Shown piece by piece: positions 5,097-43,073 of a DNA stretch of 43,073 nucleotides. Origin of the DNA: a bacterium (GTDB taxonomy: Bacteria > RBG-13-61-14 > DATKZS01); assembly GCA_035527835.1 (NCBI GenBank), contig DATKZS010000229.1, positions 1 through 43,073 of the forward strand, read 5' to 3'. The position numbers and the translations under genes are program-made. The notes beneath the pieces are model-generated. The model saw nothing but the letters and a program-made list of their open reading frames with translations, did no database searches and was not told the origin of the DNA. Numbering within the stretch: the first letter of the stretch is position 1; every line of letters starts with the position of its first letter.

Positions 5097-5171
5097 TTAA
5101 CAAGGATATTCAGGATGTTCAGGATCAAGAAAACCAGGGATCATCCTGGTAATCCTGAATATCCTTGTTAA
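5097..5171. repeat. Long imperfect hairpin, 'caggat' tandem-unit class (H1); homologous to the copy at 41369-41428
   Basis: Left arm aacaaggatattcaggatgttcaggat pairs with the reverse complement of atcctggtaatcctgaatatccttgtt. The flank gaaaagattattaacaagg is also shared with the 41357-41375 copy. Confidence 0.6.
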
Positions 5172-5224
5172 TAATCTTTTCATTTTATATTATTATCCTG
5201 GTGATAAAACCAGTTCTAGATTTA

Positions 5225-5258
5225 CCGGCCGCGGCCGCCGGGCCGGCGGCCGCGGCCA
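5225..5258 (-). terminator. GC-only 15-bp-arm palindrome immediately 3' of rny
   Basis: ccggccgcggccgccgg/gccggcggccgcggcc is a perfect palindrome 16 nt after the rny stop, followed by AT-rich sequence on the minus strand. Confidence 0.4.
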
Positions 5259-5273
5259 TGGCTTTTCCGCGTC

Positions 5274-6830: not shown

Positions 6831-6857
6831 GGTAGTTCCCCTTTCCTCGATTTATGA

Positions 6858-7711: not shown

Positions 7712-8014
7712 GGACATTACATTTAATCGTTCAATCATTTCCGGCAATTCTCGTGACGGCTTGGTCCCGGCCATCCATCATCCCGGCCTTTTTTCTCCGG
7801 CTCTCTTCCCAATTGTCGTCATCCCCCGCCTCTGCCGTGTGGCGGATCACTTTCAAACCCGGTAAAACCAGGTGGGCGCCGTATTACCGTTTCAGGTTCC
7901 TGGGCGAAGCAGTAGGCTCTCCAGGCACACACCGCGGCAAGGGACAGCTCCCTTAGTGAATTTAATGGTTCGAAAAGTCTGCCACCCAATCACGAACAGC
8001 GCAGGGGATGATAC

Positions 8015-8834: not shown

Positions 8835-10385
8835 ATGGGGCTGAACGTGGATGCGGTGGTGGTCGGCGCCGGCCTGGGCGGGCTGGCCGCGGCGGCCCGG
8901 CTTGCGCGGCACGGGCTTCGGGTGCTGGTGGCGGATGGGAACCCGCACCCGGGCGGCACGACCTCTTCATTCCAGCGGAGGGGCTTTTGGTTCCCGATGG
9001 GGCCGATGGGGTTCAGCTCGCCGGGCCTGGTGCGCGGGCTGTGGCGGGAGCTCACGGAGGAGGAGGACATCGAGCTGCAACCCATCCGCTACCGGGTCCG
9101 CGCGTTCGGCCTTGACGTGCCCATCTCGCTGCCGCTTGGCGAGCTGGCGCGCGCGCTGGCGGCGGCGGCGCCGGCGGAGGCGGCGGGGGTCGGGCGGTTT
9201 TTCGCGGAGATCGGGGAAGTGGTTGGCGCGCTCGGCGGCGCGGACGAGGCCCACGCCGGCGTCCTGGAAAGCGCGGCGGCCACGCCCGCCGGAGATTACC
9301 TGGAGTCAGTGGTCAAGGACGGCCGTCTGCGCCGCATCCTGGGGAGCATCGGGACCTCGGAGCCTTACTCGACGCTGGCGCTCTTGGCGGCGATGTGGAA
9401 CCTGGTCGCTAACGAGGGGATCTGGACGCCGCGGGCCGGGATGCGCTCGCTGGGGGAGGGGCTGGCCCGGACGGTGGAAGGGGACGGGACCGGACGGATC
9501 ATCCTGAACAGCGAGGTGGCCGAGATCAGGGTGAACCGCGGCAAGGTGAGCGGCGTGGCCCTGGCGGGCGGCGAGGTCATCAACGCGCCGGTGGTGATTT
9601 CCAATTCCGATTTCCGGGCGACGTTCCTTAAGCTGCTCGACACGGAGACGGTGCCGCCGGAGTGGATCGAGGCCGTGTTCAACGCGCGACTCACCAGCTC
9701 CAACCTGCAGGTGAGCCTGGGCCTCGACGCCGGCGTGGCTGACCTCTCCGCCTTCCGCGAGGCCCAGCGGATCATTTACCGGCGCGCGGACGCCGCGACG
9801 GAGATTGCTCCGGCCGGCCCGGACTGGCGGGCCCTGGAGATTGCCCCCGAGTCCCTGGCGGCCCAGGAGCTGGAGCTGTCGTTATGGAGCGCATGCGAGG
9901 GATCGGCGGCGCCGGCGGGCCATGCCGCGCTGGTGATCCGGACGGAGGCGGAGTATTCTCATTTCGCGCGGTATCGTCCGGCTCGGGGCAAGCGGCTCGG
10001 GCCTTATCATGAGTACAAGGTGCGGCTGGCGCGGGCGCTCACGCGGGAGGCGTCGCGGGTCGTGCCCGGCCTCATCGAGGCGATCGTGGTGATGGACGTG
10101 GCGACGCCACTGACGTTCGAGGAGCGGGGCGGCCGGAGCGGCGGCGCGGTTGCGGGCTGGTCGTGGGATTTCGAGGACAGCCGGGACGCGCGGCCGCGCG
10201 AGCTGATCCGGACGCCGGTGCGGGGCCTGTACATGGCGGGCTGCCAGGCGTTCTCGTCCCTGGTCATGGGCGGAGTGCCCACGGCCCTGGTCAGCGGCAA
10301 GCTCGCGGCCGAGTCCGCGCTGCGCGGAGACGGGCCGGTTGCGGAAGTGACGATCCCGGGAGCCGGTTCCGACAAATGGGAGTAA
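8835..10385 (+). CDS. Phytoene desaturase (CrtI)-family NAD(P)/FAD-dependent oxidoreductase
   Basis: N-terminal dinucleotide-binding motif DAVVVGAGLGGLAAAARLARHGLRVLVAD. 516 aa, CrtI/amine-oxidase-like length and C-terminal GG..MAG motif. Confidence 0.7.
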   Translation: MGLNVDAVVVGAGLGGLAAAARLARHGLRVLVADGNPHPGGTTSSFQRRGFWFPMGPMGFSSPGLVRGLWRELTEEEDIELQPIRYRVRAFGLDVPISLPLGELARALAAAAPAEAAGVGRFFAEIGEVVGALGGADEAHAGVLESAAATPAGDYLESVVKDGRLRRILGSIGTSEPYSTLALLAAMWNLVANEGIWTPRAGMRSLGEGLARTVEGDGTGRIILNSEVAEIRVNRGKVSGVALAGGEVINAPVVISNSDFRATFLKLLDTETVPPEWIEAVFNARLTSSNLQVSLGLDAGVADLSAFREAQRIIYRRADAATEIAPAGPDWRALEIAPESLAAQELELSLWSACEGSAAPAGHAALVIRTEAEYSHFARYRPARGKRLGPYHEYKVRLARALTREASRVVPGLIEAIVVMDVATPLTFEERGGRSGGAVAGWSWDFEDSRDARPRELIRTPVRGLYMAGCQAFSSLVMGGVPTALVSGKLAAESALRGDGPVAEVTIPGAGSDKWE

Positions 10386-10408
10386 ATCTTGTCCACAATA
10401 TGCACAAG

Positions 10409-10527
10409 AAAAACGCCAAGGCGCCAAGAACGCCAAGGACCGCCAAAAATGCTTGAATCGCCCGGAAGACGGATGGATATGGTATTAACAACATAATCCT
10501 TGGCGTTCTTGGCGCCTTGGCGTTTTT
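10409..10527. repeat. Long hairpin with perfect 31-bp inverted arms built from tandem 'gccaag' units (H2), ~57-nt loop
   Basis: aaaaacgccaaggcgccaagaacgccaagga ... tccttggcgttcttggcgccttggcgttttt are exact reverse complements. Intergenic between the CrtI-like gene and pepF. Confidence 0.7.
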
Positions 10528-10557
10528 CCGGTCTGCTTAGTTAGGAGCAAAAAGAGA

Positions 10558-12279
10558 ATGGTTAAAATCGGCAAGGAAGTTGTGGTCGAGTATGCGCGGG
10601 AGTTCGTGCCTGATGACATTGACCTGGGCGACGCCGGAGCGATCGAGGCGCTGTTCGACGCGCTGGAGCGGGAGAACCCGGCCAGCGGGCGCGAGGTGGA
10701 AGCGTGGCTCGGGAAATGGAGCGAGTTGAACGCGGCGGTCAGGGAGGAAGAGGCGGTGCGCTACATCCGCATGACCTGCCAGACCGACGACCCGGAGCGG
10801 GAGAAGGCGTTCCTGGAATTCGTGGAGAACGTGGCGCCGCGGCTGAAGCCCCGCCACCACCGGCTGGCCGAGAAGCTGCTCGCGTGCCCCGCGGTGAGCG
10901 ACCTGCCGGCGGAGCGGTACAAGGTGCTGCTGCGCGACCTGGAGAACGAGGTCCGGATTTTCCGGGAGGAGAACGTGCCGCTGCAGACGGAGGAGGAAAA
11001 GCTTTCGCAGCAATACCAGAAGCTCGCCGGCGCCATGACGGTGATGCACGAGGGCAAGGAGCGGACGCTGCAGCAGATGGCCAGGTACTTGGAGGTCCAG
11101 GACCGCGCGGTGCGCCGGGAGGCCTGGGAAAAGGTCACGGGCCGGCGGCTCCAGGACCGCGCGGAGATGGACCGTCTCTTTGTCGAGATGATGGCGCTCC
11201 GCCAGCGGATGGCGAAGAACGCGGGGTTCCAGAACTACCGCGACTACGCGCTCCGGCTGCGCGGCCGGTTCGATTACGGGGTGGCCGAGTGCGAGTCGTT
11301 CCATGATGCGGTGGAGAAGGCCGTGGTCCCGCTCTACCGCGAGTTCCAGGAGAAGCGGAGAAAACGGATGGGGCTTGACCGGCTCCGTCCGTGGGACCTG
11401 AAGCCGGACCCGCTGGGGCGGCCGCCGCTCAAGCCTTTCGAGAACGTGGACCAGTTGGTGGCGGGGTGCGGGAGAATTTTCGACGCGCTCGATCCGGAGC
11501 TGGGCCGGCGGTTCCGGTACCTGGCGGAGCATGAGCTTCTGGACCTGGGGAGCCGCAAGGGCAAGGCGCCGGGCGCGTACAGTCACCAGCTCGAGGAGGC
11601 GCGGTACCCGTTCATTTTCGCCAACGCGGTGGGAGTGGACCACGACGTGGAGACGCTGCTCCACGAGTGCGGCCACGCCTTCCATACCCTGGAATGCCGG
11701 GGCGAGCCGCTCTCGTTTTACCGGCACGCGCCGCTGGAGTTCGCGGAAGTGGCGTCCATGAGCATGGAGTTCCTGGGCAGCGACCATCTGAAGATGTTCT
11801 ATAATAAGGAGGACGTGGCGCGTTCCATCGAGTCACACCTGGAGAGCGTGATCTGGCTTTTCTGCTGGATCGCGACGGTGGACTCGTTCCAGCACTGGAT
11901 TTACACGCACCCGGGCCACGCGGACGATGAGCGCGCGGAGGCGTGGGTCCGGCTGCGCGGCCGCTTCGGGGGCATCGAGGACTGGTCGGGCTATGAAGAG
12001 GCGCGGCGCTTCGAGTGGCACCGCCAGCTCCACATCTTCGAGGTTCCGTTCTATTACATCGAGTACGGGATCGCGGAGCTGGGCGCGCTGCAGGTCTGGA
12101 TGCGGGCGAGGAAGGACCCGGCGGCCGCGCTCCGCGATTATCGCAAGGCGCTGGCGCTCGGCGGGACCAGGACGCTGCCCGAGCTGTTCTCGGCGGCGGG
12201 CGTGAAGTTCGACATGGGCCGGAAGACCATCGAGCCGCTTACGCGGGAGGTCAAGGCGGCGCTGGACCAGATGGGTTAA
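10558..12279 (+). CDS. pepF: M3B family oligoendopeptidase F
   Basis: Zinc-binding HECGHAFH (HExxH) motif. 573 aa, typical PepF length and architecture. Confidence 0.85.
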   Translation: MVKIGKEVVVEYAREFVPDDIDLGDAGAIEALFDALERENPASGREVEAWLGKWSELNAAVREEEAVRYIRMTCQTDDPEREKAFLEFVENVAPRLKPRHHRLAEKLLACPAVSDLPAERYKVLLRDLENEVRIFREENVPLQTEEEKLSQQYQKLAGAMTVMHEGKERTLQQMARYLEVQDRAVRREAWEKVTGRRLQDRAEMDRLFVEMMALRQRMAKNAGFQNYRDYALRLRGRFDYGVAECESFHDAVEKAVVPLYREFQEKRRKRMGLDRLRPWDLKPDPLGRPPLKPFENVDQLVAGCGRIFDALDPELGRRFRYLAEHELLDLGSRKGKAPGAYSHQLEEARYPFIFANAVGVDHDVETLLHECGHAFHTLECRGEPLSFYRHAPLEFAEVASMSMEFLGSDHLKMFYNKEDVARSIESHLESVIWLFCWIATVDSFQHWIYTHPGHADDERAEAWVRLRGRFGGIEDWSGYEEARRFEWHRQLHIFEVPFYYIEYGIAELGALQVWMRARKDPAAALRDYRKALALGGTRTLPELFSAAGVKFDMGRKTIEPLTREVKAALDQMG

Positions 12280-14100: not shown

Positions 14101-17871
<3,771 letters not shown>

Positions 17872-18003
17872 GTGCCCATGAGAGTGGGATGCAGCCTCCG
17901 GCTGGAGACTCTTCTTTTGGAGTGCGGACTTCGACGAGCTCAGTCGAGTCGCGGCACGACGCCGCTTTCATTGGGGCCGAGTGCGAGGGAAATATTTTTT
18001 CAA

Positions 18004-18075
18004 CTGCGGAGTCGCGGAGGCCGCGGAGAAGAAAATATCATAATAATCTTTCCGCGCGCTCCGCGACTCCGCGGT
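18004..18075. repeat. Long hairpin, 'gcggagtcgcggag' tandem-unit class (H3)
   Basis: ctgcggagtcgcggaggccgcggagaagaaa pairs with the reverse complement of tttccgcgcgctccgcgactccgcggt. Sits between the convergent kinase and SPFH gene ends. Confidence 0.55.
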
Positions 18076-18174
18076 AATATTCAGCGCTAATGGAGTTGCA
18101 AGGCCAATGAAAGCGCGGTCGTGCCCGCGCACTTCAAATGGACGGCCTCCCGCTTTATTCTTCGGGCGGGATTA

Positions 18175-25097: not shown

Positions 25098-26231
25098 TCA
25101 GTCCGCGATGGGGGCGATGTCTTTGTGGAAGTATTGCCGGACGGGTTCGGGGAGGATGGATGGTCCGGGGCAGGAGGCGATGAGGGGGTCTAAGGGGATG
25201 GAGTTGTAGGTGGCGATGAAGAGGGCGGGGAGGTTTTTGCGGGATGGGTCGGCCATGAATTCGATGAAGCCGGCCATGGCTTTTCCGGAGTAGGCGCCGT
25301 CGAGCGTGAGCCCTTCCAGCTCGGAGGCGAGGGCGATGGCCTCCATCCCCTTTTTGGTGAACTGGGCGTAGGCGGCTCCGAAGTAATCGTGGAGCATGGT
25401 GAGCTCGCGCGCCCGCGTTTTCACGTTCGGGATTGCCGGGTCGAGGCGGCGCAGATAAGCGAGCGCGCGGTTTAGCATGAACGCGGCGATCTTTTCGTTG
25501 GCGAGGGCCCGGGCGTACACGCGCACGCCCACGGCCCGGGTCTTGAGCCCGGCGAGCTTGAGGCCGAGGGCCAGGCCGGAAAAGGTCCCGGCCGAGCCCA
25601 CGGGCACGAACGCGAAGGCGGGCTCGGGCATCATGCCTTCCCGCACCTGCGCGGCGATCTCCAGGCCGGCCTCCACGTAGCCCATCACCCCGAGCGTTGA
25701 CGAGCCTCCGGCCCACAGCAGGTAAGGCCGGCGGCGCTTTGCGATCCAGTCCCGCAAATAGATGGAAGCGATGCGCAGCGGCGCCTTCAGGTCGCCCTCC
25801 ACGTACTCGATCTGGCAGCCCTGGCAGCAATTGGCCAGGATGTTGTCGCGCAGATACTGCTGCACCGGCTGGGGCACGAACACGCCCACCGTCTCGATGC
25901 CGATCTTTTTGGCGTAAATTGTGGTGGCGAGCACGTGGTTCGAGCCGACGGCGCCCAGGGTGATCACGGGGTTTCTTTTCCGTTTAAAGGCGTCGGCCAG
26001 GGTGAACTCGAGCTTCCTCACCTTGTTGCCGCCGTACTCCTCCCCCGAGAGGTCGTCGCGCTTGACAAAGAGGGCGGAGGCGCCGATGCGCGCCGCGAGC
26101 TGGTCCATGCGCTGGACCGGGGTGGGGAATTTCCCGAGCGGCAGCCAGGGCAGCTTGCCGGAGAGGCCCGGGAATTTGCGGACCAGGTACAGCTCGCGTA
26201 CATCCGTGGGGTTCATGCCAGGCGAGAGCAT
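25098..26231 (-). CDS. PLP-dependent ACC deaminase / D-cysteine desulfhydrase family enzyme
   Basis: GGNKVRKLEF PLP-lysine motif and fold-type II architecture. The ORF track start at 26363 runs through hairpin H4; start placed at the internal Met (~26231 or 26216). Confidence 0.75.
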   Translation of the reverse strand: MLSPGMNPTDVRELYLVRKFPGLSGKLPWLPLGKFPTPVQRMDQLAARIGASALFVKRDDLSGEEYGGNKVRKLEFTLADAFKRKRNPVITLGAVGSNHVLATTIYAKKIGIETVGVFVPQPVQQYLRDNILANCCQGCQIEYVEGDLKAPLRIASIYLRDWIAKRRRPYLLWAGGSSTLGVMGYVEAGLEIAAQVREGMMPEPAFAFVPVGSAGTFSGLALGLKLAGLKTRAVGVRVYARALANEKIAAFMLNRALAYLRRLDPAIPNVKTRARELTMLHDYFGAAYAQFTKKGMEAIALASELEGLTLDGAYSGKAMAGFIEFMADPSRKNLPALFIATYNSIPLDPLIASCPGPSILPEPVRQYFHKDIAPIAD

Positions 26232-26288
26232 AGCCGATGGCGGGGGAGGGATCAAATGGTGAGCGGTGGGCGGGCGATAGGATCTCGC

Positions 26289-26352
26289 ACAGAGACACGG
26301 AGACACAGAGATTTCTTTTTTTCCATACTTCCTCCGTGTCTCTGTGTCTCGG
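26289..26352. repeat. Long hairpin, 'cagagaca/cggagaca' tandem-unit class (H4)
   Basis: cacagagacacggagacacagagat ... ctccgtgtctctgtgtctcgg, with a 15-nt T-rich loop. In the divergent intergenic region. Confidence 0.55.
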
Positions 26353-26456
26353 CGCGAAACCAATTGATCAATGGCGGGCAGTCCCGCTTCATGGGGAACG
26401 CCCGTTTGCCCCGCCGTATATTATTCCGTTATCATGAGAGGCGGCGGCATCATGCC

Positions 26457-27947
26457 ATGAACGAGACCAAGGACAGGCCGGAGGCGGAGGAGGCCGAGGC
26501 GGACCCGCGGGCGGCGGAGCGGGAGGCGTGGATCGAGCGGCTGCGCCTTGACGGCAAGTACCGCATGTTGTTCGAGCTGGAGATCCTGTTGAAGGGCCTG
26601 GACCGCTTCTTCAACGTCGAGAACCTTCCGCTCGCCAACATGCAGCAGGTGATTGCGCTCAATTTCGTGGACGAGCTGGAGATCATCCTGCAGTTCGTGG
26701 ACCGGGTGGTGGAGCTTTCGGGCGTGCTGCTCGACGCCTCGCGGCAGGAGGACTACCAGTTCAAGTATTACATCGAGACCAAGCTCCTGGGCGACTACGA
26801 GCGCTCGCGCTGGCGGGAGGCGGTGCTGGAGCAGGAGAACCCGGAGGCCAGCCTGTTCGTGCTCTACGGGACCTTCTTGAACCTGCGCGAGATCCTGCGC
26901 GGACTCACTCAGCTTAAAGTAGTGCCCTACACCATCTTCTTCAACACCGGCAACCTGATCAGCCGCGAGATGCTGGGCAACCGCTACTTCAACCCGTCCC
27001 GCCCGGTCGAGTTCCGGCCCGAGTTCGACAAGGTCAATAACAAGCGCATCGGAATGATCGTCCGGGCCGTCAAGGACGCCCAGCTCCAGCGCAACGCGTC
27101 CATCGTGGTCCTCGCCTTCAACCGGCTGTTGCAGTACCTGCGCTTCATTGACCCTCGGAGCGAGTCCATCGAGCACCTGAAAAGCTCGCTCCTCTTCTTC
27201 GCCCTCATCCACTCCGAGTCGAAATACCTGATGGAGTTCATGGAAACCAACCTGCCCGACCGGCTCGCGGGCAACCCGGACAAAATGCGCGGGCCCTTCA
27301 CCGAGGCCTGCGACTCGCTCTCCTTCCAGCTCCAGATGGAGCTCAAGAAGATCCACGCCGGCGAGCTCCTCAACCTGGCCAAGCAGAAAAAGCTCGAGAG
27401 CGTGAAGACGGCCGTCGAGAACAGCCACGGTATCCTGATGAACTTCTTCCAGCAGAGCGTGATCCAGATCCTCAAGGTGTTCGAGTCGGGGCTGGCGGGG
27501 GAGGAGATCTTCCCGGTGTTCATCTCGCGCCGGAAGCAGAGCCTGAAGCTCCGGGAGGACCTGGCGGTGTTCCGCTCCATGATGGAGAAATTCGAGGAGA
27601 TCACCGAGACCACGGAGGCCGGGATGCACCTGGACACGTATCTGAAATACCTGGTCCTGCAGAAGGGCTTCGTGGCCAGGATGCGGCGCGGCACCATGCC
27701 GCTGATGCGCTACCACGACCTGGTGGAGTTCGAGAAGTACCTGAAGTTCGTCGAGGGCCTGGGCCTCGACGACCTGCATATCATGGACAAGCTCGACAAG
27801 TTCAAGATGGAATCCAAGTTCTTCAAGATCCTGGTCGAGACCACCTTAGGCCACATTGACAACCGCTCCGAGCTGCAGGGAGAGCCGCTGGACAAGGCCA
27901 GGGTGGAGCGCAGGCTGAAGCGGTTCGTGGTGGAGTACCTGAAATAG
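26457..27947 (+). CDS. Hypothetical all-alpha protein, 496 aa, no recognised domain
   Basis: Real-protein amino-acid composition (K/E/F/L/N/Y-rich), unlike the antisense frame. Acidic N-terminus. GCGGCGGCAT upstream of the ATG. Confidence 0.6.
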   Translation: MNETKDRPEAEEAEADPRAAEREAWIERLRLDGKYRMLFELEILLKGLDRFFNVENLPLANMQQVIALNFVDELEIILQFVDRVVELSGVLLDASRQEDYQFKYYIETKLLGDYERSRWREAVLEQENPEASLFVLYGTFLNLREILRGLTQLKVVPYTIFFNTGNLISREMLGNRYFNPSRPVEFRPEFDKVNNKRIGMIVRAVKDAQLQRNASIVVLAFNRLLQYLRFIDPRSESIEHLKSSLLFFALIHSESKYLMEFMETNLPDRLAGNPDKMRGPFTEACDSLSFQLQMELKKIHAGELLNLAKQKKLESVKTAVENSHGILMNFFQQSVIQILKVFESGLAGEEIFPVFISRRKQSLKLREDLAVFRSMMEKFEEITETTEAGMHLDTYLKYLVLQKGFVARMRRGTMPLMRYHDLVEFEKYLKFVEGLGLDDLHIMDKLDKFKMESKFFKILVETTLGHIDNRSELQGEPLDKARVERRLKRFVVEYLK

Positions 27948-28005
27948 AAGCTAGAATATAGAAGAAGAGGCCGCGGCGCTTCAATTCTATATTCTATCTT
28001 CTGGA
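27947..28005. repeat. Imperfect hairpin of 'aatataga' units (H5) between the unknown gene and hemL
   Basis: gaagctagaatatagaagaag ... cttcaattctatattctatcttc, plus an extra gattctatattc copy. Confidence 0.4.
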
Positions 28006-28033: not shown

Positions 28034-29314
28034 ATGTTCAGTCATTCCAAGGAGCTGTTCGAGCAGGCTCAGGCGCTGCTGGTGGGCGGGGTGAACAGCC
28101 CGGTGCGGGCGTTTCGGGGCGTGGGGGGCACGCCGGTGTTCATGGCTAAAGGCCGGGGCAGCAAGATCGAGGACGAGGACGGGAACGTCTTTATTGATTA
28201 CGTGTTGTCGTGGGGCCCGCTGATCCTGGGGCATGCTCACCCGGCGGTGGTTGACGCGGCGGTGGGGGCGGTGAAGGACGGCTCGAGCTTCGGCGCGCCG
28301 ACGGTCAAGGAGATCGAGATGGCGCGTCGGGTGCAGTCGTTTTACCCGTCGCTCGAGAAGATGCGTCTCACGAGTTCGGGCACGGAGGCGTGCATGGGGG
28401 CGGTGCGGGCGGCGCGGGGTTACACGGGCCGGGACAAGATCATCAAGTTCGAGGGCTGCTACCACGGCGGCGCGGACTATTTGCTGGTGAAGGCCGGGTC
28501 CGGCGCCACTACACTCGGGCAACCGGACTCCGCCGGCGTGCCCGCGTCGTTCGCCGAGCATACCATCGTCATCCCGTATAACGACATCCACGCGCTGGAG
28601 CACGCCTTTGCCGAGCAGGGCCCCCGGATCGCCGCGCTGATCCTGGAGCCGGTGGCCGGCAACATGGGCCTGATTTTGCCCGAGCCCGGGTTCCTGGACG
28701 CGGTGCGCAACCTGACCACGCATTACAACGCGCTCTTGATCTTCGACGAGGTGCTGGTCGGCTTCCGCATCCGGGGCGGCGCGCAGGGGCATTTTGACAT
28801 CAAGCCGGACCTGACGTGCCTGGGTAAGGTCATCGGCGGCGGGTTCCCGGTCGGCTGTTACGGCGGCCGGGCCGAGGTCATGGCCAAGGTGGCGCCGGAG
28901 GGTCCGGTGTACCAGGCGGGCACGCTCTCCGGCAACCCGGTGGCCATGGCTGCCGGGCTGGCCACCCTGGAGGAGCTGCAAAAGCCGGGCGTGGTGGACG
29001 ACCTGGAGGCGCGCACCGCCGCGCTGGTCAGCGGGCTTAAGGAGGCCGCGAAAAAAGAAGAGGCCCCCGTGTCGTTCTCGTCCATCGGCAGCATGTTCTG
29101 CATCTTCTTCCGCGACCGGCAGCCGGTGAACTATACCGAGGCCATGCAGGGCGACGCTCAGCGCTACGGCCGCTTCTTCCACGCCATGTTGAAGAGGGGC
29201 ATCTACCTCGCGCCCTCGGCCTACGAGACCGCGTTCCTCTCCACGGCGCACTCGTACGAGGACATAGACAAGACGGTGGCGGCGTTCCGGGAGGCGCTCA
29301 AGGAGAGCGGGTAG
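28034..29314 (+). CDS. hemL: Glutamate-1-semialdehyde 2,1-aminomutase
   Basis: MFSHSKELFEQAQALLVGGVNSPVRAF N-terminus and class-III aminotransferase body. GAAGGAG RBS 6 nt upstream of the ATG at 28034. The ORF track TTG at 28019 is rejected. Confidence 0.9.
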   Translation: MFSHSKELFEQAQALLVGGVNSPVRAFRGVGGTPVFMAKGRGSKIEDEDGNVFIDYVLSWGPLILGHAHPAVVDAAVGAVKDGSSFGAPTVKEIEMARRVQSFYPSLEKMRLTSSGTEACMGAVRAARGYTGRDKIIKFEGCYHGGADYLLVKAGSGATTLGQPDSAGVPASFAEHTIVIPYNDIHALEHAFAEQGPRIAALILEPVAGNMGLILPEPGFLDAVRNLTTHYNALLIFDEVLVGFRIRGGAQGHFDIKPDLTCLGKVIGGGFPVGCYGGRAEVMAKVAPEGPVYQAGTLSGNPVAMAAGLATLEELQKPGVVDDLEARTAALVSGLKEAAKKEEAPVSFSSIGSMFCIFFRDRQPVNYTEAMQGDAQRYGRFFHAMLKRGIYLAPSAYETAFLSTAHSYEDIDKTVAAFREALKESG

Positions 29315-29332
29315 CGAGATAGAACACAAAGA

Positions 29333-29459
29333 GAACCGCCAAGACGCCAAGGCCGCCAAGAAAAAATAGATAAAAATATGGAAGGACGGAAACGCAACTC
29401 CGTCCTTCTTTATTAAATCCAATAAATTCTTTCTTGGCGGCCTTGGCGTCTTGGCGGTT
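29333..29459. repeat. Long hairpin with perfect 30-bp inverted arms of tandem 'gccaag' units (H6), with a nested small hairpin in the loop
   Basis: aaccgccaagacgccaaggccgccaagaaa ... tttcttggcggccttggcgtcttggcggtt are exact reverse complements. Loop contains gaaggacggaaacgcaactccgtccttc. Sits between the convergent hemL and galT ends. First 19 nt are identical to H10. Confidence 0.7.
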
Positions 29460-29477
29460 TATTTTACTTAATGGAAC

Positions 29478-30482
29478 TCACCCCACGTCCATTTCCCTCA
29501 AAAATTCCGCCGCTTCCTCGGGCAGGACCGGGTTGATGTAGAATCCGGAGCCGTACTCGAAGCCGGCGATGCGGGTGAGGCGGGGCATGATCTCGATGTG
29601 CCAGTGGTAGTAGTTGTTGTACTGCTCGTCAAAGGGCGAGGTATGGAGGATGGAGTTGTAGTGGGGCCTCCGGAGCGCGGCGTCGAGTCGTTTGTGGACC
29701 TCGTTGGAAATGGCGGCGAGGTTCTTGAGCTGGGCCGGGTTGCAGTCCTCGAAGCAGGAGTCGTGGGACTTGGGCAGGATCCAGACCTCGAACGGAAAGA
29801 TGGGGGCCCACGGGCTCACCGCGATGAAGCCCTCGTTCTGGCACACGATCCTTTCCTCCATGTCCGTCTCCTGCTGGATGATGTCGCAGAAGATGCAGCG
29901 CTCCTTGTACTGGTAGTACTCGCGCGATCCGTTCATCTCCTCCACGATGTGCTTGGGGAGGATGGGCAGCGCGATGAGCTGCGAGTGCGGGTGCGCGAGC
30001 GACGCCCCCGCGGCCTCCCCGTAATTCTTGAAGAGCATGACGTACTTGAAGCGCCGGTCGTGGCGCAGGTCCACGATCCGCTCGCGGTAGGCCCGGTAAA
30101 CGTGCTCGATGTCGGACAAGTCCATGGTGGCGCGGGTCACGTCGTGGCGCGGCGACTCGATGATGACCTCGTGCGCGCCGGTGCCGCTCATACGATCGAA
30201 GTAGCCCACGCCCTCGCGATGGAGCTCGCCCTCGATGCGCAGCGCCGGGAACTTGTTGGGGATCACCCGCACCCGCCAGCCCGGGGTATTGGGAGCGCCG
30301 GCGCCCTCGCGGATGGAAAAAATCTCCGGCGGGGTCTGGGCCTCGTGGCCCTCGCAGAACGGGCACTTCTCCGCGCCCTTCTGCTCGTAGGCCTGGGTGT
30401 AAAAGTCCACCGGCCGCTTCCGGCGCTCGGTGGCGATGATCACCCACCGGCCGTCAACCGGGTCTCTTCTCAGCTCCGACAT
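29478..30482 (-). CDS. galT: Galactose-1-phosphate uridylyltransferase
   Basis: CPFCEGHE zinc site and HPHSQ active-site motif. Start placed at MSELRR (GAGGAG RBS). The ORF track extends to 30560. Confidence 0.85.
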   Translation of the reverse strand: MSELRRDPVDGRWVIIATERRKRPVDFYTQAYEQKGAEKCPFCEGHEAQTPPEIFSIREGAGAPNTPGWRVRVIPNKFPALRIEGELHREGVGYFDRMSGTGAHEVIIESPRHDVTRATMDLSDIEHVYRAYRERIVDLRHDRRFKYVMLFKNYGEAAGASLAHPHSQLIALPILPKHIVEEMNGSREYYQYKERCIFCDIIQQETDMEERIVCQNEGFIAVSPWAPIFPFEVWILPKSHDSCFEDCNPAQLKNLAAISNEVHKRLDAALRRPHYNSILHTSPFDEQYNNYYHWHIEIMPRLTRIAGFEYGSGFYINPVLPEEAAEFLREMDVG

Positions 30483-30634
30483 CAGAATCTCCTCGCCAGG
30501 ATTATCGCAAAAGCGGCCCGCTAAAACAAGGACGGCGGCCGCGCGCCCGCTTGACTTCAATGGGCCTCTCCCGCTATGGTCAAATCAGGCTTTTAGCCTT
30601 GCACTTTTAACACATTTTCGCCCGGGGGAAAATC

Positions 30635-34879: not shown

Positions 34880-34902
34880 GCATTCATGGCTCCATTGACT
34901 GG

Positions 34903-34940
34903 GGCAAGGCGCGGCATGGTGGCCGCGCCTTGCCTTTATT
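34903..34940 (+). terminator. Rho-independent terminator after the OmpA-family gene
   Basis: 13-bp stem GGCAAGGCGCGGC/GCCGCGCCTTGCC with loop CATGGTG, then TTTATT. Confidence 0.6.
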
Positions 34941-37512: not shown

Positions 37513-39105
37513 ATGAAAATATTTTCCACTGCGGGCTTTATGATCCTGGTCCTGGCAATGGCCGGCGCCACTACTGGCGACGGCGCTAACCCGCCCGTTG
37601 GCTATCAATGGCTGAATGGCCTGGATTATTTGTGGCAATACTCCGGCGCTGTCCATACCGCCATGAGCTCTTCCACCGACCCCGCCGGCGGCAACATGGA
37701 CATGTCGCAGTTCCACGGCAAGTACCGCGGGGAGAAAATCCTGGCCAAGATTGACGGTCCCGGCTGCGTGTACCGGATCTGGTCGGCCGCGCCGAGCGGG
37801 ATCTTGAAGGTCTACCTCGACGGGTCCACCAAGCCCGCCATCAACTGCGGCTTCAAGAACTACCTGGAGGGCAAGTGCTCCGGCCTGCCCGCTGACTTCA
37901 CGCTCGGCCGCTGGGCCAACTACATGCCCATACCCTTTGCCAAATCCATCGTCATCACCGCGCCCGGCTTCACCTTCCCCGGCTATTACCAGGTGAGCTA
38001 TCAGACCTATGATCCATCGGTAAAGGTGGAGTCGTTTAAAAAGGAGGCGGCGCTTTCCTTCACCCCGCTGGAAAAAGCGCCGTCGGTTTTTCTGGGAGGA
38101 AAGCTGAACCAGGGCTGCGACGGCCTGGAGAGCGCGGAGGGCACGGCCGAGCTCGCGCCGGGCGCGGACGCGGTGGCGCTCGATCTCTCGGGCGCGGGCG
38201 TGATCCGGCGGCTTTCCGTGAAGAAGCCGGAGGGCGGCCAGGCGTCGCTCGAAGGGCTCAAGATCATGATGTACTGGGACGGGTCGGACGCGGCCGCGGT
38301 GGACGCTCCGCTGGACGCGTTTTTCGTGGACCGGTTCGAGCTCACGGACCAGTGGCCGGGCGGGTCGCTGGCCGGTATCTTCGTCACTGGAAGCGACGAG
38401 GGCAACGCGGCCTGGTTCCCGATGCCCTTCGCCTCCGGCGCCCGCGTCGCGATCATGAACCCCGGCGATACGCCCAGGAGCCTCAAGCTCCGCGCCTGTT
38501 ATGAAAAGCTCCCGGCGCTCCCGCCGTCCGCCCTGCGCTTTCACGCCGAGTACCGGGACAAGGACTACCCCTCCGACCTCTCGCCCGAGCGCACCATCAC
38601 CAGCAAAACCGTCATTGACCCAGCCACCAACTACGTGGTCCTGGAGCGCCAGGGCCGGGGCAATTACGTGGGCTGCGCCATCTTCGTGAAAAGCGTGGGC
38701 ACGGTCTGGTGGGGCGAGGGCGACGAGATGACGTACATTGACGGCGCCCGGGAGCCGCAGATCCGGGGCACGGGCACGGAGGACGAGCTCAACTGGTCGT
38801 GGGGCTTTAACCCGCACATGTCGCTGATCTCGGGCACGCTCCCGGTGGTGCCGGAGTGCAAGGAGTCCATCGCCGCGCAGCTCATCCCCCAGCTTCGAAA
38901 CCCCGAGTGCAACAAGCTCACCGGCGAAAACATCGCCTACCGCTTCCGGCCCTCCGACTACGTGCCTTTCGCCTCATCAATCAAGGTGAGCTATGAGCTG
39001 CTGGGCCAGTCCTGGGCCGCGCCCAACGGCCCCGTTAAGGGCAACCTCAGCCAGAACCGCGGAGACGACTACGCCAGCATGGCGTACTGGTACGAGGCGC
39101 CGTGA
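37513..39105 (+). CDS. Secreted hypothetical protein (signal peptide), 530 aa; likely beta-rich, possibly carbohydrate-active
   Basis: N-terminal signal peptide. Gly/Trp/Tyr-rich composition typical of beta-sandwich extracellular proteins. No motif confidently recognised. Confidence 0.6.
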   Translation: MKIFSTAGFMILVLAMAGATTGDGANPPVGYQWLNGLDYLWQYSGAVHTAMSSSTDPAGGNMDMSQFHGKYRGEKILAKIDGPGCVYRIWSAAPSGILKVYLDGSTKPAINCGFKNYLEGKCSGLPADFTLGRWANYMPIPFAKSIVITAPGFTFPGYYQVSYQTYDPSVKVESFKKEAALSFTPLEKAPSVFLGGKLNQGCDGLESAEGTAELAPGADAVALDLSGAGVIRRLSVKKPEGGQASLEGLKIMMYWDGSDAAAVDAPLDAFFVDRFELTDQWPGGSLAGIFVTGSDEGNAAWFPMPFASGARVAIMNPGDTPRSLKLRACYEKLPALPPSALRFHAEYRDKDYPSDLSPERTITSKTVIDPATNYVVLERQGRGNYVGCAIFVKSVGTVWWGEGDEMTYIDGAREPQIRGTGTEDELNWSWGFNPHMSLISGTLPVVPECKESIAAQLIPQLRNPECNKLTGENIAYRFRPSDYVPFASSIKVSYELLGQSWAAPNGPVKGNLSQNRGDDYASMAYWYEAP

Positions 39106-39118
39106 GGAATTATTTTTG

Positions 39119-39198
39119 CACGCAAAGGCGCAAAGACCGCAAAGAATTGAAAAATTTTTATTCTAAATTTCTGCTTTGCGGTCTTTGCGCCTTTGCGA
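39119..39198. repeat. Long hairpin of tandem 'cgcaaag' units (H7), a sequence variant of the gccaag class
   Basis: cgcaaaggcgcaaagaccgcaaagaa ... ttctgctttgcggtctttgcgcctttgcg. Sits between the convergent ends of the 37513 gene and the fmdB-like gene. Confidence 0.65.
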
Positions 39199-39219
39199 GA
39201 AATAAAATCTCCCATCCTC

Positions 39220-39531
39220 TTATTTCTTCCGCCTCGTCTTCCGCGGATAGGTTGACTCGTCGCCCAGATTGACCACGCGGCTCTCGCCGTCCCTGGCCGT
39301 CACGTTCTCGTAAACGCCCTTGTCCCGCCGCACCAGCTTGGTAAAGCCCTGGTTCTTCAACTCGGCGCTGGTTTTGGGGAAGGAGAGTTGCGGCGCCGAG
39401 ATCAGCCTTTTCACCGGAGCGCCGCAGCGCGGGCAGGCCGTGAGCGGCGCTTCGCTCATGGACTGCTCCCACTCGAACACCTTGCCCAGCTTGCAGGCCC
39501 GGTTTTCATGCTCGAACTCGTAAAGCGCCAT
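39220..39531 (-). CDS. FmdB-family putative regulatory zinc-ribbon protein
   Basis: MALYEFEHENRAC...CPRCG matches the MPxYEYxCxxCGxxFE...CPxCG FmdB pattern. Basic C-terminal tail. Confidence 0.5.
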   Translation of the reverse strand: MALYEFEHENRACKLGKVFEWEQSMSEAPLTACPRCGAPVKRLISAPQLSFPKTSAELKNQGFTKLVRRDKGVYENVTARDGESRVVNLGDESTYPRKTRRKK

Positions 39532-39590: not shown

Positions 39591-39667
39591 CGGTAGGACA
39601 GACATTCTTGTCTGTCCGGCGGTAGACAGGCAAGAATGTCGGGACAGACAAGAATGTCTGTCCTACC
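39591..39667. repeat. REP-like compound palindrome, copy E (AT-richer variant: three GACA-N-TGTC cores, GGTAG/CTACC brackets)
   Basis: ggtagGACAGACATTCTTGTCTGTCcggcggtagACAGGCAAGAATGTCGGGACAGACAAGAATGTCTGTCctacc. Confidence 0.55.
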
Positions 39668-40401: not shown

Positions 40402-41232
40402 TTATTTCTCCATGGCCGGTATGGCGGCGGGATGGAACAGGACCTGGCCCTCGGCCTGGAACGACCCGATCCTGGCCTGGCCCTCCGGGCTCGTGAGCCA
40501 CGCGATCAGGAGCATGGCGTCCATGTAGTTCGCGTCCGGATACCGCGCCGGGTTGGTCGCGATCATGGCATAAGGGTTGTCCAGGGCCGGGTCGTTTTCG
40601 CAAACGATGTCCAGGTCCAGGGTCTTTTTCAGCGCCAGGTACGTGCCGCGGTCGGAAAGGGTGTAGGCCTTCTTCTCGTGGGCCATGCGTAAAGCTTCCT
40701 CCATGCCCTGGCCGATCTCGAGGTAGCGGTCCGCCGCCGGCTTGCCATTGACCAGCGGCCAAAGCTGCAACTCCTTCTTGTTCGTGCCCGAGTCGTCGCC
40801 GCGCGAGATGAACACCGCGTTCTTATTGTCCGTGAGCAGCCCAAGCGCGTCCTTGAGCGACGCCGCGCTTTTGATCCCGGCCGGGTCGGAAGGGGGGCCC
40901 ACGATCACGAAGTCGTTCTTCATGAACGGCCGCCGGTTCACCCCGAACCCCGCATCCACGAACTTCATCTCCGCCTCCGGCGCGTGCACCATCACCACGT
41001 CAACGTCGCCGTTCTCCGCGAGCTTCAGCGCCTTGCCCGTGCCCACCGCGATCACCTGCACCTCGATCCCGTACTCCTTCTCGAAAACCGGCAGCAGGTA
41101 ATCGAGCAGGCCCGAGCTCTGGGTGCTGGTCGTGGTCGCCATCTTCAGCACCCGCTTCCCCTTGGCCGCCGCATGGAGCGCGAACGCCATGAAGAGACAT
41201 ACCATTGCCGCGAGAACTGTTTTCCGGTTCAT
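40402..41232 (-). CDS. tupA: Tungstate ABC transporter substrate-binding protein (TupA/WtpA-like)
   Basis: Signal peptide. KMATTTSTQSSGLLDYL matches the TupA anion-binding TTTST..SGL signature. 276 aa. Confidence 0.8.
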   Translation of the reverse strand: MNRKTVLAAMVCLFMAFALHAAAKGKRVLKMATTTSTQSSGLLDYLLPVFEKEYGIEVQVIAVGTGKALKLAENGDVDVVMVHAPEAEMKFVDAGFGVNRRPFMKNDFVIVGPPSDPAGIKSAASLKDALGLLTDNKNAVFISRGDDSGTNKKELQLWPLVNGKPAADRYLEIGQGMEEALRMAHEKKAYTLSDRGTYLALKKTLDLDIVCENDPALDNPYAMIATNPARYPDANYMDAMLLIAWLTSPEGQARIGSFQAEGQVLFHPAAIPAMEK

Positions 41233-41278
41233 GCCTGCTCCTTTCTCCCTCCGAGTTTTATGGGGCGTTTTTATTAGC

Positions 41279-41507
41279 CGCAGATGAACGCGGATGAACG
41301 CAGATAAGAGTTGATTATTAGAACCGGTTTCATAACCAGGACAAACATCTCGAATGAAAAGATTATTAACCAGGATATTCGGGATTTTCAGGATGATCCC
41401 CGGTTTTTTAATCCTGAAGATCCTTGTTAAAAAATTCTTGTCTGGTTTATGAAACCGCCTCTAATAATATTTTTATTTATCTGCGTTCATCCGCGTTCAT
41501 CTGCGGC
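41279..41507. mobile_element. MITE-like composite: ~60-bp imperfect terminal inverted repeats (outer 27 bp built from 'gatgaacgc' units) flanking an AT-rich core that contains hairpin H9
   Basis: ccgcagatgaacgcggatgaacgcagataagagttgattattagaaccggtttcataacc pairs with the reverse complement of ggtttatgaaaccgcctctaataatatttttatttatctgcgttcatccgcgttcatctgcgg. Lies 47 bp upstream of the tupA start. Confidence 0.55.
41369..41428. repeat. Hairpin H9 ('caggat' class), a degraded homologue of H1 at 5097-5171
   Basis: accaggatattcgggattttcaggat ... atcctgaagatccttgtt. The left flank atgaaaagattattaaccaggatattcgggat is ~90% identical to the H1 flank. Confidence 0.5.
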
Positions 41508-41530
41508 AAAAAAATCCCCCTCTCTCAAAC

Positions 41531-41580
41531 AAAAAAGCCCGTCCCGCGTGTCAACGGGACGGGCCGGCCGTCCTTTTTTC
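41531..41580. terminator. Bidirectional intrinsic terminator (A6-GCCCGTCCCG-loop-CGGGACGGGC-...T6)
   Basis: 10-bp GC stem with an A-run upstream and a T-run downstream. Confidence 0.5.
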
Positions 41581-42021
41581 TCCTTTCCAAGCGCGGGGGG
41601 TCGCGAGGTTTCCCTCACGGCCGAATAGTCGCGTTCCCTGGCCTTGTCTCGGGCGGTAGGCGTGAGCGACTCGGAGATGCTCGGAGTATAACGGAATGCC
41701 CGCCCCAAAGCAAACCCGTACGCCCGGCAAGGGTATCGGGCCTGCCGTCATTGCCCCGCCGCTCCCCTGCTCTTTACCTTTTTACCCAAGGTCCGGTGGC
41801 GCGGGCCTATAAAAAGAGCCGCGTCGCTCTTTAATTATTCAATAACGGAAGGATTGGGCTGCCGCGAGTGGGACGCAATATTGGGAACGGCCCTTGTTCC
41901 TCTGAAAAGATCAAGGATTTGGCAAGGATAGCTGCCGGGGCGATGCCGGCGACGGATTGGCACTATGTTTGCTACATAACAAAACCATAATTTACTAAAT
42001 TAAACGCCCAAGGGAAACTCC

Positions 42022-42642
42022 ATGAATGATGAAGGGTTGATCGGCAATTTAGGGAGTTCGGCGAATGTGACCGGGCCCGGCCGGTTCAACGCGGGCAAAT
42101 CGTCGCCTCACGGCCGGGGCATCGGCCTGGGCAAAGGCGGGGGTGGTCCTGACCGCGGCCCGGCGCGGGCGGACCAGGGCGTGCGCGGCAAGGAGCGGCC
42201 CAAGCCCCGGATCTGCGTGATTGACCCCGAGGAGGAGTTGCTCCTTGACCTGGAAAGCGTGCTCCATGCCATGGGCTACGAGGTCCTGAGCCTTAACCGG
42301 GTGATCGGGGCCTCCAATGAGATCCGGGCGTTCAGCCCGGACCTGCTCATCGTTGACATCCAGATGCCCGCGGTCTCCGGCGGCAAGCTGATCGAGGTAT
42401 TGCGCCGAAACCTCCCTGACATGCCCCTCTTGATCCTCTACTCCCGCCTCCAAGAACCCGACCTCGCCCGCCTGGCCCGTGCCCTCAGAGCCGACGACTT
42501 CATCATCAAAAGCGGCAACCTGCTCTCGCTCGTGAACCGCGTCAAGTTCCACTTGAACCTCCTGGGCCGGCAAAAAGGCATGGGCGTTGCCGCGGCGGAC
42601 CATTCTGTCCTGCCGCGTTTAAATAAAGGAAGAGGTCAATAG
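42022..42642 (+). CDS. Stand-alone CheY-like response-regulator receiver protein with Gly-rich N-terminal extension
   Basis: Receiver signature with the phospho-acceptor Asp in LLIVDIQMP (acidic residues at VIDPEEE) and the conserved Lys. No output domain. 206 aa. Confidence 0.7.
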   Translation: MNDEGLIGNLGSSANVTGPGRFNAGKSSPHGRGIGLGKGGGGPDRGPARADQGVRGKERPKPRICVIDPEEELLLDLESVLHAMGYEVLSLNRVIGASNEIRAFSPDLLIVDIQMPAVSGGKLIEVLRRNLPDMPLLILYSRLQEPDLARLARALRADDFIIKSGNLLSLVNRVKFHLNLLGRQKGMGVAAADHSVLPRLNKGRGQ

Positions 42643-42752
42643 TCCTAAACTTGAATTACAAAAAAACGCGCCCGCAATGACCCGGCCCCGACCTCGGCCG
42701 GGTCATTCATTTTTATAAATTGACTAAGTGCTGTCCAAAATAAACGGACCGG

Positions 42753-42953
42753 AGAACCGCCAAGACGCCAAGAGCGCCAAGGATTATTTTTTAACAAGAT
42801 TTTAAGAGGGCTTGGGTGCGAATGTTTCTTGCTTGGCGCTCCCGTCGGCCGGTTCGCCAAGCCGGTTGGGGCCAACGCTCCGGAGCTGTTCTTTGCCGGG
42901 CCGCCAATAAACATCAGGTTTTACTTGGCGGTCCTTGGCGCTCTTGGCGTCTC
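42753..42953. repeat. Long hairpin of tandem 'gccaag' units (H10) with ~137-nt loop; left arm shares 19 identical nt with H6
   Basis: gagaaccgccaagacgccaagagcgccaaggat ... acttggcggtccttggcgctcttggcgtctc. The loop carries further gccaag-like remnants. Confidence 0.6.
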
Positions 42954-43073
42954 CTATGAATAAAATTGTCAAGTCGCCTCGATGTTAAAGTCATGCACCT
43001 CCGGGGCGCCCGAGGGGGGCACAAGGGTTATCCACAATTTCCACAGGCCTCCGGAAAAGGGGCCTCACGGAGC

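Follow-up and report, generated by a model that had tools for sequence, protein, structure and literature searches.

The intergenic DNA of a bacterial contig of 43,073 nt (DATKZS010000229.1, assembly GCA_035527835.1; hereafter the window, meaning this whole stretch, to which coordinates refer unless another locus is named) contains long hairpins whose arms are each composed of about three short tandem units, and the question raised by these structures is whether they are mobile DNA or RNA elements that serve the host. The original prediction described a family of four such loci (H2, H6, H7, and H10) and offered either a miniature mobile element with tandem-repeat terminal inverted repeats (TIRs) or a lineage-specific, super-stable terminator or RNA-stabilizer class. 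The four hairpins were confirmed in the sequence at the places described and their design was real, and systematic inverted-repeat and array scans enlarged the set to approximately 10 intergenic hairpins in the 43-kb window. We conclude that these hairpins are probably gene-less, non-autonomous members of a cross-phylum inverted-repeat family that partners cassettes of GxxExxY nuclease genes. This conclusion draws on shared arms, a statistical association with one gene family, nesting, spread across phyla, presence or absence between relatives, and canonical terminators that stand independently of the hairpins. The first four loci are as follows (z, RNA-fold z-score).

H2, 10408-10528: 32-bp perfect inverted repeat with arms 10408-10439 and 10497-10528, 57-nt loop, three CGCCAAG units plus a degenerate fourth unit, z -9.5; between the co-directional amine-oxidase-like gene (8835-10385, + strand) and M3 peptidase gene (10558-12279, + strand).
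H6, 29334-29459: arms 29334-29367 and 29426-29459, complementary at 33 of 34 positions, 58-nt loop, z -15.5; three CGCCAAG units in the arm GAAC-CGCCAAG-A-CGCCAAG-GC-CGCCAAG; between the convergent genes hemL (28034-29314, + strand) and galT (29478-30560, - strand).
Inner hairpin of H6, 29381-29408: bidirectional, terminator-like hairpin of 10-11 bp within the H6 loop.
H7, 39106-39212: arms of three CGCAAAG units, 24-bp perfect core (39121-39144 and 39174-39197) with an imperfect extension out to 39106-39212, 29-nt loop, z -8.9; between the convergent GH172/DUF2961 gene (37513-39105, + strand) and zinc-ribbon gene (39220-39531, - strand).
H10, 42752-42954: three CGCCAAG units per arm (42758-42781 and 42924-42949), 148-nt loop, 21-bp perfect stem (42763-42783 and 42932-42952); downstream of the receiver-domain gene (42022-42642, + strand) and a canonical terminator (42676-42707).

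Several details of the initial description changed on measurement. H2 had correctly been called perfect, at 31 bp, and H6, given as a perfect 30-bp repeat, contained one mismatch. The loops of H7 and H10 were longer than the 22 and approximately 137 nt first reported, the hairpin in the H6 loop was present and longer than the 9 bp assigned to it, and the string common to H6 and H10 (GAGAACCGCCAAGACGCCAAG) was 21 nt, not 19. Three of the four loci had been placed between convergent gene ends; this held for H6 and H7, whereas H2 lies between co-directional genes and the gene order 3' of H10 lies beyond the window end. The perfect stem of H10 is limited to 21 bp because its two arms are offset by one unit when they pair. 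The pattern could not be ascribed to chance, since GCCAAGNNNGCCAAG occurred nine times in the window with at most one mismatch, against 0.34 expected; its six exact matches were all within CGCCAAG hairpin arms. Every intergenic heptamer array found by the array scan of the window belonged to an inverted pair. The z-scores of the window hairpins ranged from about -5 to -15.5, and no shuffled sequence folded equally well.

A common grammar was apparent in the arms. The outer end is usually (A/T)TGAAC (variants, TCAC, TAAC, CTCG, and TAGC), and inward of it a single heptamer, C(G/A)C-N-R-A-G, is repeated three or occasionally four times, with spacers of 1-3 nt that are mostly purines. A scan for (CGCCAAG N1-3)x3 with one genome per species returned at least 119 loci, and an inverted partner was present within 400 nt at no fewer than 25 of those listed. 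The arm GAAC-CGCCAAG-R-CGCCAAG-RR-CGCCAAG ... GTTC, including the 19-mer GAACCGCCAAGACGCCAAG, recurred in Planctomycetota, Verrucomicrobiota, Acidobacteriota, Chloroflexota, Myxococcota (complete Sorangium genomes), Gamma- and Betaproteobacteria, and Cyanobacteria, with loops of 13-186 nt that often held further hairpins of the same design built from CGCAGAG, CACAGAG, or CGCGAAT units. With the unit relaxed to C(G/A)C-N-R-A-G, 113 arm pairs were recovered from the retrieved DNA; their ends were complementary, most often as (A/T)TGAAC ... GTTCA(A/T), and approximately 90% of the pairs shared the same inward polarity. The CGCRGAT arm of the window was found verbatim in Tepidisphaeraceae, at other loci, and in phage contigs. 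Viral scans for the CGCCAAG unit returned mostly coding repeats on one strand, and those for the CAGGAT class were uninformative, returning mostly coding repeats with a 9-nt period. A plasmid search for the arms found one Nostoc megaplasmid, with solo arms: in Nostoc sp. UHCC 0926 plasmid pn1 (L328, 2477-2570) another inverted repeat, of 14 bp (TTAGGACTTACGCA), has the arm CTTGGCG-TC-CTTGGCG-T-CTTGGCG-GTTC in its loop, and there are four such places on the plasmid. In a partial literature search, the arm sequence gave nothing and GxxExxY, PF13366, and TIGR04256 gave incidental mentions only; the partial search on heptamers, short tandemly repeated repetitive (STRR) sequences, miniature inverted-repeat transposable elements (MITEs), and repetitive extragenic palindromic (REP) sequences brought up analogues and no description of this element.

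In other genomes the same arms enclose a gene. CGCCAAG arms stood around a GxxExxY open reading frame (ORF) of approximately 125-140 amino acids in L078 and L087 (TIGR04256 E-values from 1e-38 to 1e-44; Pfam PDDEXK_3), as they did in L248-L254, L256, L258, L260, and L266; in L105 they surrounded only the first ~50 codons of such an ORF. CGCAAAG arms enclosed GxxExxY ORFs in L261 and L281, and CACAGAG arms did so in 16 loci. Eighty GxxExxY loci were then drawn from metagenomes without regard to the repeat. Of the 76 that could be assessed, 57 had an upstream flank that aligned with the downstream flank in reverse complement, and nearly all of these alignments were heptamer arrays of the grammar described above. 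In 53 of the 80 loci a single CRCNRAG heptamer occurred three or more times in the flanks, as compared with 0.06% of dinucleotide-shuffled flanks and none of 351 control windows. The arms abutted the ORF, at median distances of 21 nt from the ORF match and 6 nt beyond the stop codon, and the start codon was often the ATG or TTG of the (A/T)TGAAC arm end, so that database proteins begin with MNRQDAKDAK encoded by the arm, and some end with LGGLGVLAV. The proteins were 56.6% identical within an arm class and 51.0% between classes (permutation p = 5e-4), a difference that held for GC-matched pairs. The orientation of the ORF matched that of its neighbors at a ratio of 27:8 upstream and 23:5 downstream, which suggested expression by read-through. 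Gene-less hairpins of the matching unit class stood beside the cassette at 8 of the 80 loci, and the two forms occurred together in L087, L008, L292, L297, and L326. Arm pairs 300-900 nt apart enclosed nothing recurrent except GxxExxY.

The GxxExxY protein consists of approximately 125 amino acids and matches Pfam PDDEXK_3 (PF13366) and TIGR04256; one query retrieved more than 4,000 cluster representatives of the family at E < 1e-10. A superfamily-wide survey gives PDDEXK_3 as 'function unknown' and records multiple transfers of it from one division to another (PMC3424549). The D, E, and K of the PD-(D/E)XK motif were invariant among GxxExxY proteins, with D...E-x-K intact, and the AlphaFold2 model had a pLDDT of 89.8. 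The best fold matches of the model in PDB by Foldseek were lambda exonuclease and Cas4 (E approximately 4e-3, probability 0.99-1.0). A sequence search of PDB found no solved GxxExxY relative, and PADLOC and PHROGs gave nothing meaningful apart from a weak match to a Cas4b profile. GxxExxY thus looks like a functional, minimal Cas4/lambda-exonuclease-like PD-(D/E)XK nuclease. It shares the PD-(D/E)XK core with homing endonucleases, Cas4, and lambda exonuclease, and differs from Cas4 and the homing nucleases in its small size, the lack of an Fe-S cluster region, and the lack of an intron or intein context. Selfish homing nucleases are found among small PD-(D/E)XK proteins, I-Ssp6803I being one example.

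On the reading that we prefer, the arms would be TIRs, and the full-length form of the element would be the one that tightly encloses a GxxExxY gene of ~125 codons, in the same polarity. The heptamer arrays may be recognition sites of the nuclease, which, encoded elsewhere in the genome, would drive the spread of the gene-less copies by cut-and-repair or homing-like copying, the arms providing both recognition sites and homology. Copies would persist where they do little harm, such as at gene 3' ends, in operon spacers, and in leaders, and any terminator or RNA-stabilizing effect would be secondary. The mobile-element option of the original prediction was thus favored by the fixed polarity and grammar of the arms and by the nuclease gene that they enclose elsewhere, and it was further backed by the nesting of copies and by filled and empty sites in close relatives. 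We advance only tentatively the wider proposal that GxxExxY genes and heptamer-array repeats constitute a previously unrecognized class of mobile or selfish elements in more than 10 phyla, in which the nuclease spreads both its gene and the far commoner gene-less hairpins.

Several observations weigh against the preferred reading. To our knowledge, binding or cutting of any substrate by a GxxExxY protein has never been shown. There was no GxxExxY gene within the 43-kb window, and the loops of 107 gene-less hairpins contained no GxxExxY coding remnants in either orientation; therefore, the hairpins may be sites that the gene invades, not decayed cassettes. Origin from an internally deleted cassette was evident for L105 alone, and the loops of hairpin copies from the same genome were mostly unrelated to one another. 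For the CAGGAT, CGCRGAT, and TAGAA classes no link to GxxExxY genes was found here, and in phage contigs CGCRGAT arrays occurred singly, 5' of co-oriented ORFs, which may indicate that they work as expression signals. Neither a clean target-site duplication nor a clean boundary of the element was identified, and at rny-ymdB the extra DNA of the window was composite; a check for target-site duplications had been proposed along with the original prediction, and inspection of the 113 arm pairs revealed no flanking direct repeats.

The other hairpins of the window, listed here with the features beside them, bear on whether these structures serve the host as RNA.

Hairpin, 5094-5174: TTAAC followed by three (A/C)AGGAT-type units; in the rny-ymdB spacer, z -6.9.
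Hairpin, 18003-18075: arms of three CGCGGAG units; 3' of the kinase-WD40 gene (14101-17871, + strand) and enclosed between the arms of another inverted repeat (17953-17974 and 18104-18125), z -9.0.
Hairpin, 26284-26358: arms CACAGAG-A-CACGGAG-A-CACAGAG with ends CTCG/CGAG; in the divergent spacer between the genes at 25098-26231 (- strand) and 26457-27947 (+ strand), z -6.4.
Hairpin, 27946-28002: shorter and AT-rich, with (C)TAGAA-like units; directly 5' of hemL, z -5.3; tentative member of the family.
Hairpin, 39592-39667: 26-bp perfect inverted repeat of nested GGACAGAC/GTCTGTCC palindromes, z -9.7; of a different design and probably a separate repeat family.
Nested complex, 41270-41514: 245 nt in three layers, with outer arms 41270-41307 and 41477-41514 (AGC-CGCAGAT-GAA-CGCGGAT-GAA-CGCAGAT), a middle inverted repeat 41314-41344 and 41438-41468, and an inner CAGGAT-type hairpin at ~41368-41430.
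Molybdate/tungstate-type binding-protein gene, 40402-41232, - strand: start codon at 41232.
Moco (molybdenum cofactor)/tungsten riboswitch aptamer, 41536-41688, - strand: Rfam RF01055, 40.8 bits, with its own terminator at 41536-41565.
Ordinary terminators, 34901-34936, 41536-41565, and 42676-42707: called by a consensus terminator scan of the window.

A regular expression combined with the array scan showed that H2, H6, H10, H7, and the hairpins at 18003 and 26284 obey the heptamer rule C(G/A)C-N-R-A-G; the hairpins at 5094, 41270, and 27946 have the design of the family but belong to classes with a different unit consensus. Nesting was seen in the window at 41270-41514 and 17953-18125 and in the loops of L041, L069, L073, and L108. 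The genes flanking the hairpins are housekeeping genes (hemL, galT, rny, ymdB, trkAH, the M3 peptidase, kinase-WD40, and the molybdate-type ABC transporter), and the GC content of the window is 62.6%. The repeat at 17953-18125, which has the CGCGGAG hairpin in its loop, belongs to a second, unrelated inverted-repeat family (...GCCGCTTT ... AAAGCGGCGTCAAGCCGCCGCACTCCAAATGG...) found at 1060-1260 and 17930-18150 of the window and at 1-260 of the relative L465. A 6S RNA (7819-8010, - strand; Rfam RF00013, 96 bits) adjoins the 5-formyltetrahydrofolate cyclo-ligase gene in the usual ssrS-ygfA-type arrangement. At the contig end, a 38% GC island (49-867) looks like foreign DNA, and the ORF at 287-619 (- strand) has a weak, sub-threshold match to the phage SPP1 gp7-like minor capsid domain.

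An explanation in which the hairpins are host-beneficial RNA elements (bidirectional terminators, 3'-end stabilizers, or RNase III sites) and the tandem units are incidental would account for the extreme predicted stability of the stems, for the position of H6 and H7 between convergent genes, and for the A-runs before and T-runs after the stems of H2 and H6. By crude gene calls, family hairpins lay in 11 convergent and 3 divergent spacers; only such spacer-type counts were usable, the orientation of a hairpin relative to its flanking genes being meaningless for an inverted repeat that reads alike on both strands. Across the family, a T-rich tail followed 38% of the stems and an A-rich lead preceded 39%, but the T-tail was missing in the other 62%. 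Intrinsic terminators consist of a GC-rich stem of 5-15 bp, a loop of 3-8 nt, and a U-tract 3' of the stem. That assignment was rejected, with stems of 21-34 bp, loops of 21-148 nt, and T-runs in H2 and H6 only; the consensus scan that called the ordinary terminators did not call the hairpins themselves. H10 is not needed to end the receiver gene, because the terminator at 42676-42707 stands between the two, and H6 carries a terminator-like hairpin of its own in its loop. Three copies lay in unexpected positions, namely the divergent promoter region at 26284-26358, the rny-ymdB operon spacer, and the leader between the riboswitch terminator and the binding-protein ORF. Since the nested complex lies between that terminator and the start codon, read-through transcripts must carry it in their leader. 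In Rfam 15, no hairpin reached the gathering threshold, the 6S RNA and the Moco riboswitch being the sole matches in the window.

The arms themselves also gave no indication of selection on RNA pairing. Mismatches between the arms of the cassettes were of the G-U type in 68 cases and of the A-C type in 67 on the sense strand, with no G-U excess. Family-wide, the heptamer cores were complementary at 94% and the spacers at 58%, against 39% expected, and perfect hairpins made up approximately 16% of the family. With the cores kept and the spacers poorly paired, it is the array that is conserved and not the helix, in agreement with the earlier idea of a protein-recognition array made up of the direct repeats. 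H2, H6, and H7, which are perfect or nearly so, suggest young copies. The GC content of the loops was 42.6%, compared with 59.3% for the locus. A terminator role would, moreover, leave unexplained the identical arms in unrelated phyla and the bracketing of one gene family, and one relative has an rny-ymdB spacer that lacks the hairpin; we regard an RNA function as an unlikely primary role. The second option of the original prediction, a lineage-specific terminator or stabilizer class, was disfavored on the same grounds and because the family spans many phyla.

The greater conservation of the cores than of the arm-to-arm pairing could also mean that the basic unit is a single heptamer array, which would act as a portable cis signal (protein-bound or in the 5'-untranslated region) for an adjacent ORF, with the inverted pairs being secondary. 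Solo arrays of the kind that forms the window arm at 41270 (AAC-CGCRGAT-RAA-CGCRGAT-RAA-CGCRGAT) occurred 10-40 nt 5' of co-oriented phage start codons, several per contig (IMG/VR L331, L332, L339, L341, and L343); hairpin forms of this array were present in the IMG/VR contigs L334 and L335. The GGAUGA in these units resembles a CsrA-type GGA motif. At 1340-1960 of a Dehalococcoidia metagenome-assembled genome (L055), five direct repeats of ~115-230 nt each consisted of GGTTGAAC-(CGCCAAG)x3-4 and a parS-like palindrome, TGTTTCACGTGAAACA; here the CGCCAAG heptamer may be part of a centromere-like array. At 5780-6960 of a Chloroflexia metagenome-assembled genome (L052), opening arrays of the CGCCAAG, CGCAGAG, and CACAGAG classes stood in tandem beside a host gene of ~244 amino acids, with closing arrays of two classes on its other side, an arrangement that suggested recombination between elements. 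A precedent exists in TAACTGA heptamer direct repeats, which lie 5' of start codons across phyla (PMC4679880). The L055 arrays and the solo phage arrays leave room for a binding or expression-signal role. As a general explanation, however, a portable signal seems improbable: the intergenic arrays of the window are all paired, the shared inward polarity is that of TIRs, the unit sequences differ by class so that no single reader protein fits all, it is hard to see how a closing arm right after a stop codon would act as a 5' signal, and presence or absence at housekeeping operons argues against conserved regulation.

Comparison of orthologous spacers, which had been suggested as a check, did reveal presence and absence between close relatives, as expected if the hairpins belong to a mobile family. 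The rny-ymdB spacer was 20 nt in the relative L466 (GCA_964432065.1) and 249 nt in the window, with 88-91% nucleotide identity across rny-ymdB. The extra DNA of ~225 nt in the window comprised the CAGGAT hairpin and a GC palindrome; the latter (5226-5260, GGCCGCGGCCGCCGG/CCGGCGGCCGCGGCC) is GC-only, nearly perfect, and not in L466. The motif GGAAAGGC, GGAAA(A/G)GC(C/T), was present at both junctions of the extra DNA and is a possible 8-11-bp target duplication. In the relative L465, the same spacer (3680-3790) contained perfect, spacer-less (GCGAGAA)x5 and then (ACTAGAA)x4; thus, other kinds of heptamer array also turn over at this site. Downstream of hemL, L121 (HemL 92% identical) had a CGCAAAG hairpin, as compared with the CGCCAAG hairpin H6 of the window. 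Relatives with 75-82% HemL identity, which are too distant for spacer alignment, had no such hairpins in 55 kb, as against approximately 10 in the window. In L122 (11324-13309) and L123 (11333-13324), a Na+/H+ exchanger (KefB-like) gene lies between hemL and galT; in the window this gene is absent, and the 163-nt spacer (29315-29477) holds H6. Other assemblies of the same strain (L126 and L127, 100% identical) had contig ends at 39617, 41490, and 39169, inside hairpins, which fits the hairpins being multi-copy and breaking assemblies. A look-up of the zinc-ribbon protein for strain variants returned only copies 100% identical to the window, and an all-against-all comparison of the retrieved loci for filled and empty pairs yielded only related phage contigs.

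The spacer-less arrays of L465 are also what would be expected if hairpins arose locally and repeatedly, with slippage expanding a unit and fold-back or template-switch repair copying it to the other arm, so that likeness between genomes would be convergent. The out-of-register pairing of the H10 arms, which slippage would allow, and the several window copies that are perfect palindromes agree with such an origin. The 10-nt TGAACATCCT is common to the closing arm of the 5094 CAGGAT hairpin (5143-5165) and the ymdB start (TTGAACATCCTC, 5010-5040), the latter of which also fits the (A/T)TGAAC arm-end motif; by our own estimate a match of this kind has a chance probability of roughly 0.05, and the sharing may be chance or a hint of target or origin. 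We nevertheless consider local origin very unlikely, since the same 19-28-nt arm, with its GAAC end and 1-nt then 2-nt purine spacers, occurs in unrelated phyla, the CGCCAAG arm occurs three times at unrelated loci of the window itself, and the arms are tied to one gene family.

Membership in a mobile inverted-repeat family invites comparison with known elements. In architecture the hairpins are similar to MITEs, REPtrons, and rRNA intervening sequences, and in unit size to TAACTGA and STRR arrays. They carry TIRs in multiple copies (three of the CGCCAAG type among the ~10 hairpins in 43 kb), and, like MITEs, they share these TIRs with a longer, gene-carrying form, are short, non-coding, and AT-rich inside, nest, and vary in presence between relatives. 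They differ from MITEs in that the enclosed gene is not a known transposase, a clear target-site duplication is lacking, the sequences inside the copies resemble neither one another nor the gene, and the arms contain internal tandem repeats. Because the same arms enclose the GxxExxY gene, the window copies stand roughly as MITEs to transposons, or as REPINs (REP-based hairpins) to RAYT (REP-associated tyrosine transposase) genes. As in REPtrons, a small enzyme gene lies between inverted copies of a short repeat (PMC3733652, PMC3116915), is co-oriented with its neighbors, and is presumably expressed by read-through, and gene-less hairpins are scattered in intergenic DNA, preferentially away from promoters, with several families per genome. 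However, RAYT is an HUH/Y1 transposase, as opposed to the predicted PD-(D/E)XK nuclease (PDDEXK_3) here, and REP families are largely species- or genus-specific, as opposed to identical arms across phyla. REPs are by definition imperfect palindromes of 20-40 bp, one end of which carries a conserved GTAG or CGTC (PMC3733652), whereas the arms here are 25-35 nt and composed of three tandem heptamers. Assignment to REP or REPIN was rejected: there was no GTAG or CGTC tag, the arms ended in GAAC, TCAC, CTCG, and similar sequences, and the only recurrent enclosed gene was PDDEXK_3/GxxExxY, the rest of the genome not having been searched for RAYT.

Intervening sequences of 23S rRNA likewise have a long inverted-repeat stem around nothing or a small ORF, with both forms coexisting, and a sporadic, horizontal-looking distribution (bioRxiv 10.1101/2024.02.27.582315). 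In contrast to the hairpins, they lie within rRNA, their ORFs encode four-helix-bundle proteins (PF05635), and they are processed by RNase III, whereas the mismatch pattern here carries no sign of RNA-level selection. TAACTGA repeats (Beggiatoaceae, Cyanobacteria, and Bacteroidetes) and cyanobacterial STRR sequences resemble the present arrays as heptamers repeated two to six times in intergenic DNA; the TAACTGA repeats are often just 5' of start codons and are cross-phylum without a known vector, which recalls the solo CGCRGAT phage arrays (PMC4679880). They are, however, direct repeats only (with one indirect case), without spacers, of another unit, and with no associated gene (PMC4679880), whereas the arrays described here are inverted, purine-spaced pairs whose outer end is conserved. 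Integron attC sites were also considered and rejected, since (A/T)TGAAC has G where a pyrimidine is required and the neighbors are housekeeping genes in mixed orientations; no integrase was present among the Pfam-scanned genes of the window. The attC consensus consists of RYYYAAC / GTTRRRY core sites in an imperfect hairpin with extrahelical bases, and attC sites accompany arrays of promoterless cassettes next to intI. Readings as CRISPR, LexA boxes, or sigma-54 promoters were rejected on sequence grounds.

These results tie GxxExxY/PDDEXK_3, a large and uncharacterized family, to a precise and easily searched DNA grammar, and they provide the testable hypothesis that a nuclease and its repeats are partners in the way that RAYT and REPINs are. 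The grammar explains spurious small database 'proteins' with MNRQDAKDAK N-termini and LGGLGVLAV C-terminal tails as well as assembly breaks in metagenome-assembled genomes, and it cautions against labeling such hairpins as terminators. If the hairpins are mobile, they would be a cross-phylum vector of intergenic change, as exemplified by insertions into the rny-ymdB operon and a riboswitch leader. If the nuclease indeed recognizes the arrays and spreads both its gene and the hairpins, this would provide a function for a family with thousands of uncharacterized members.

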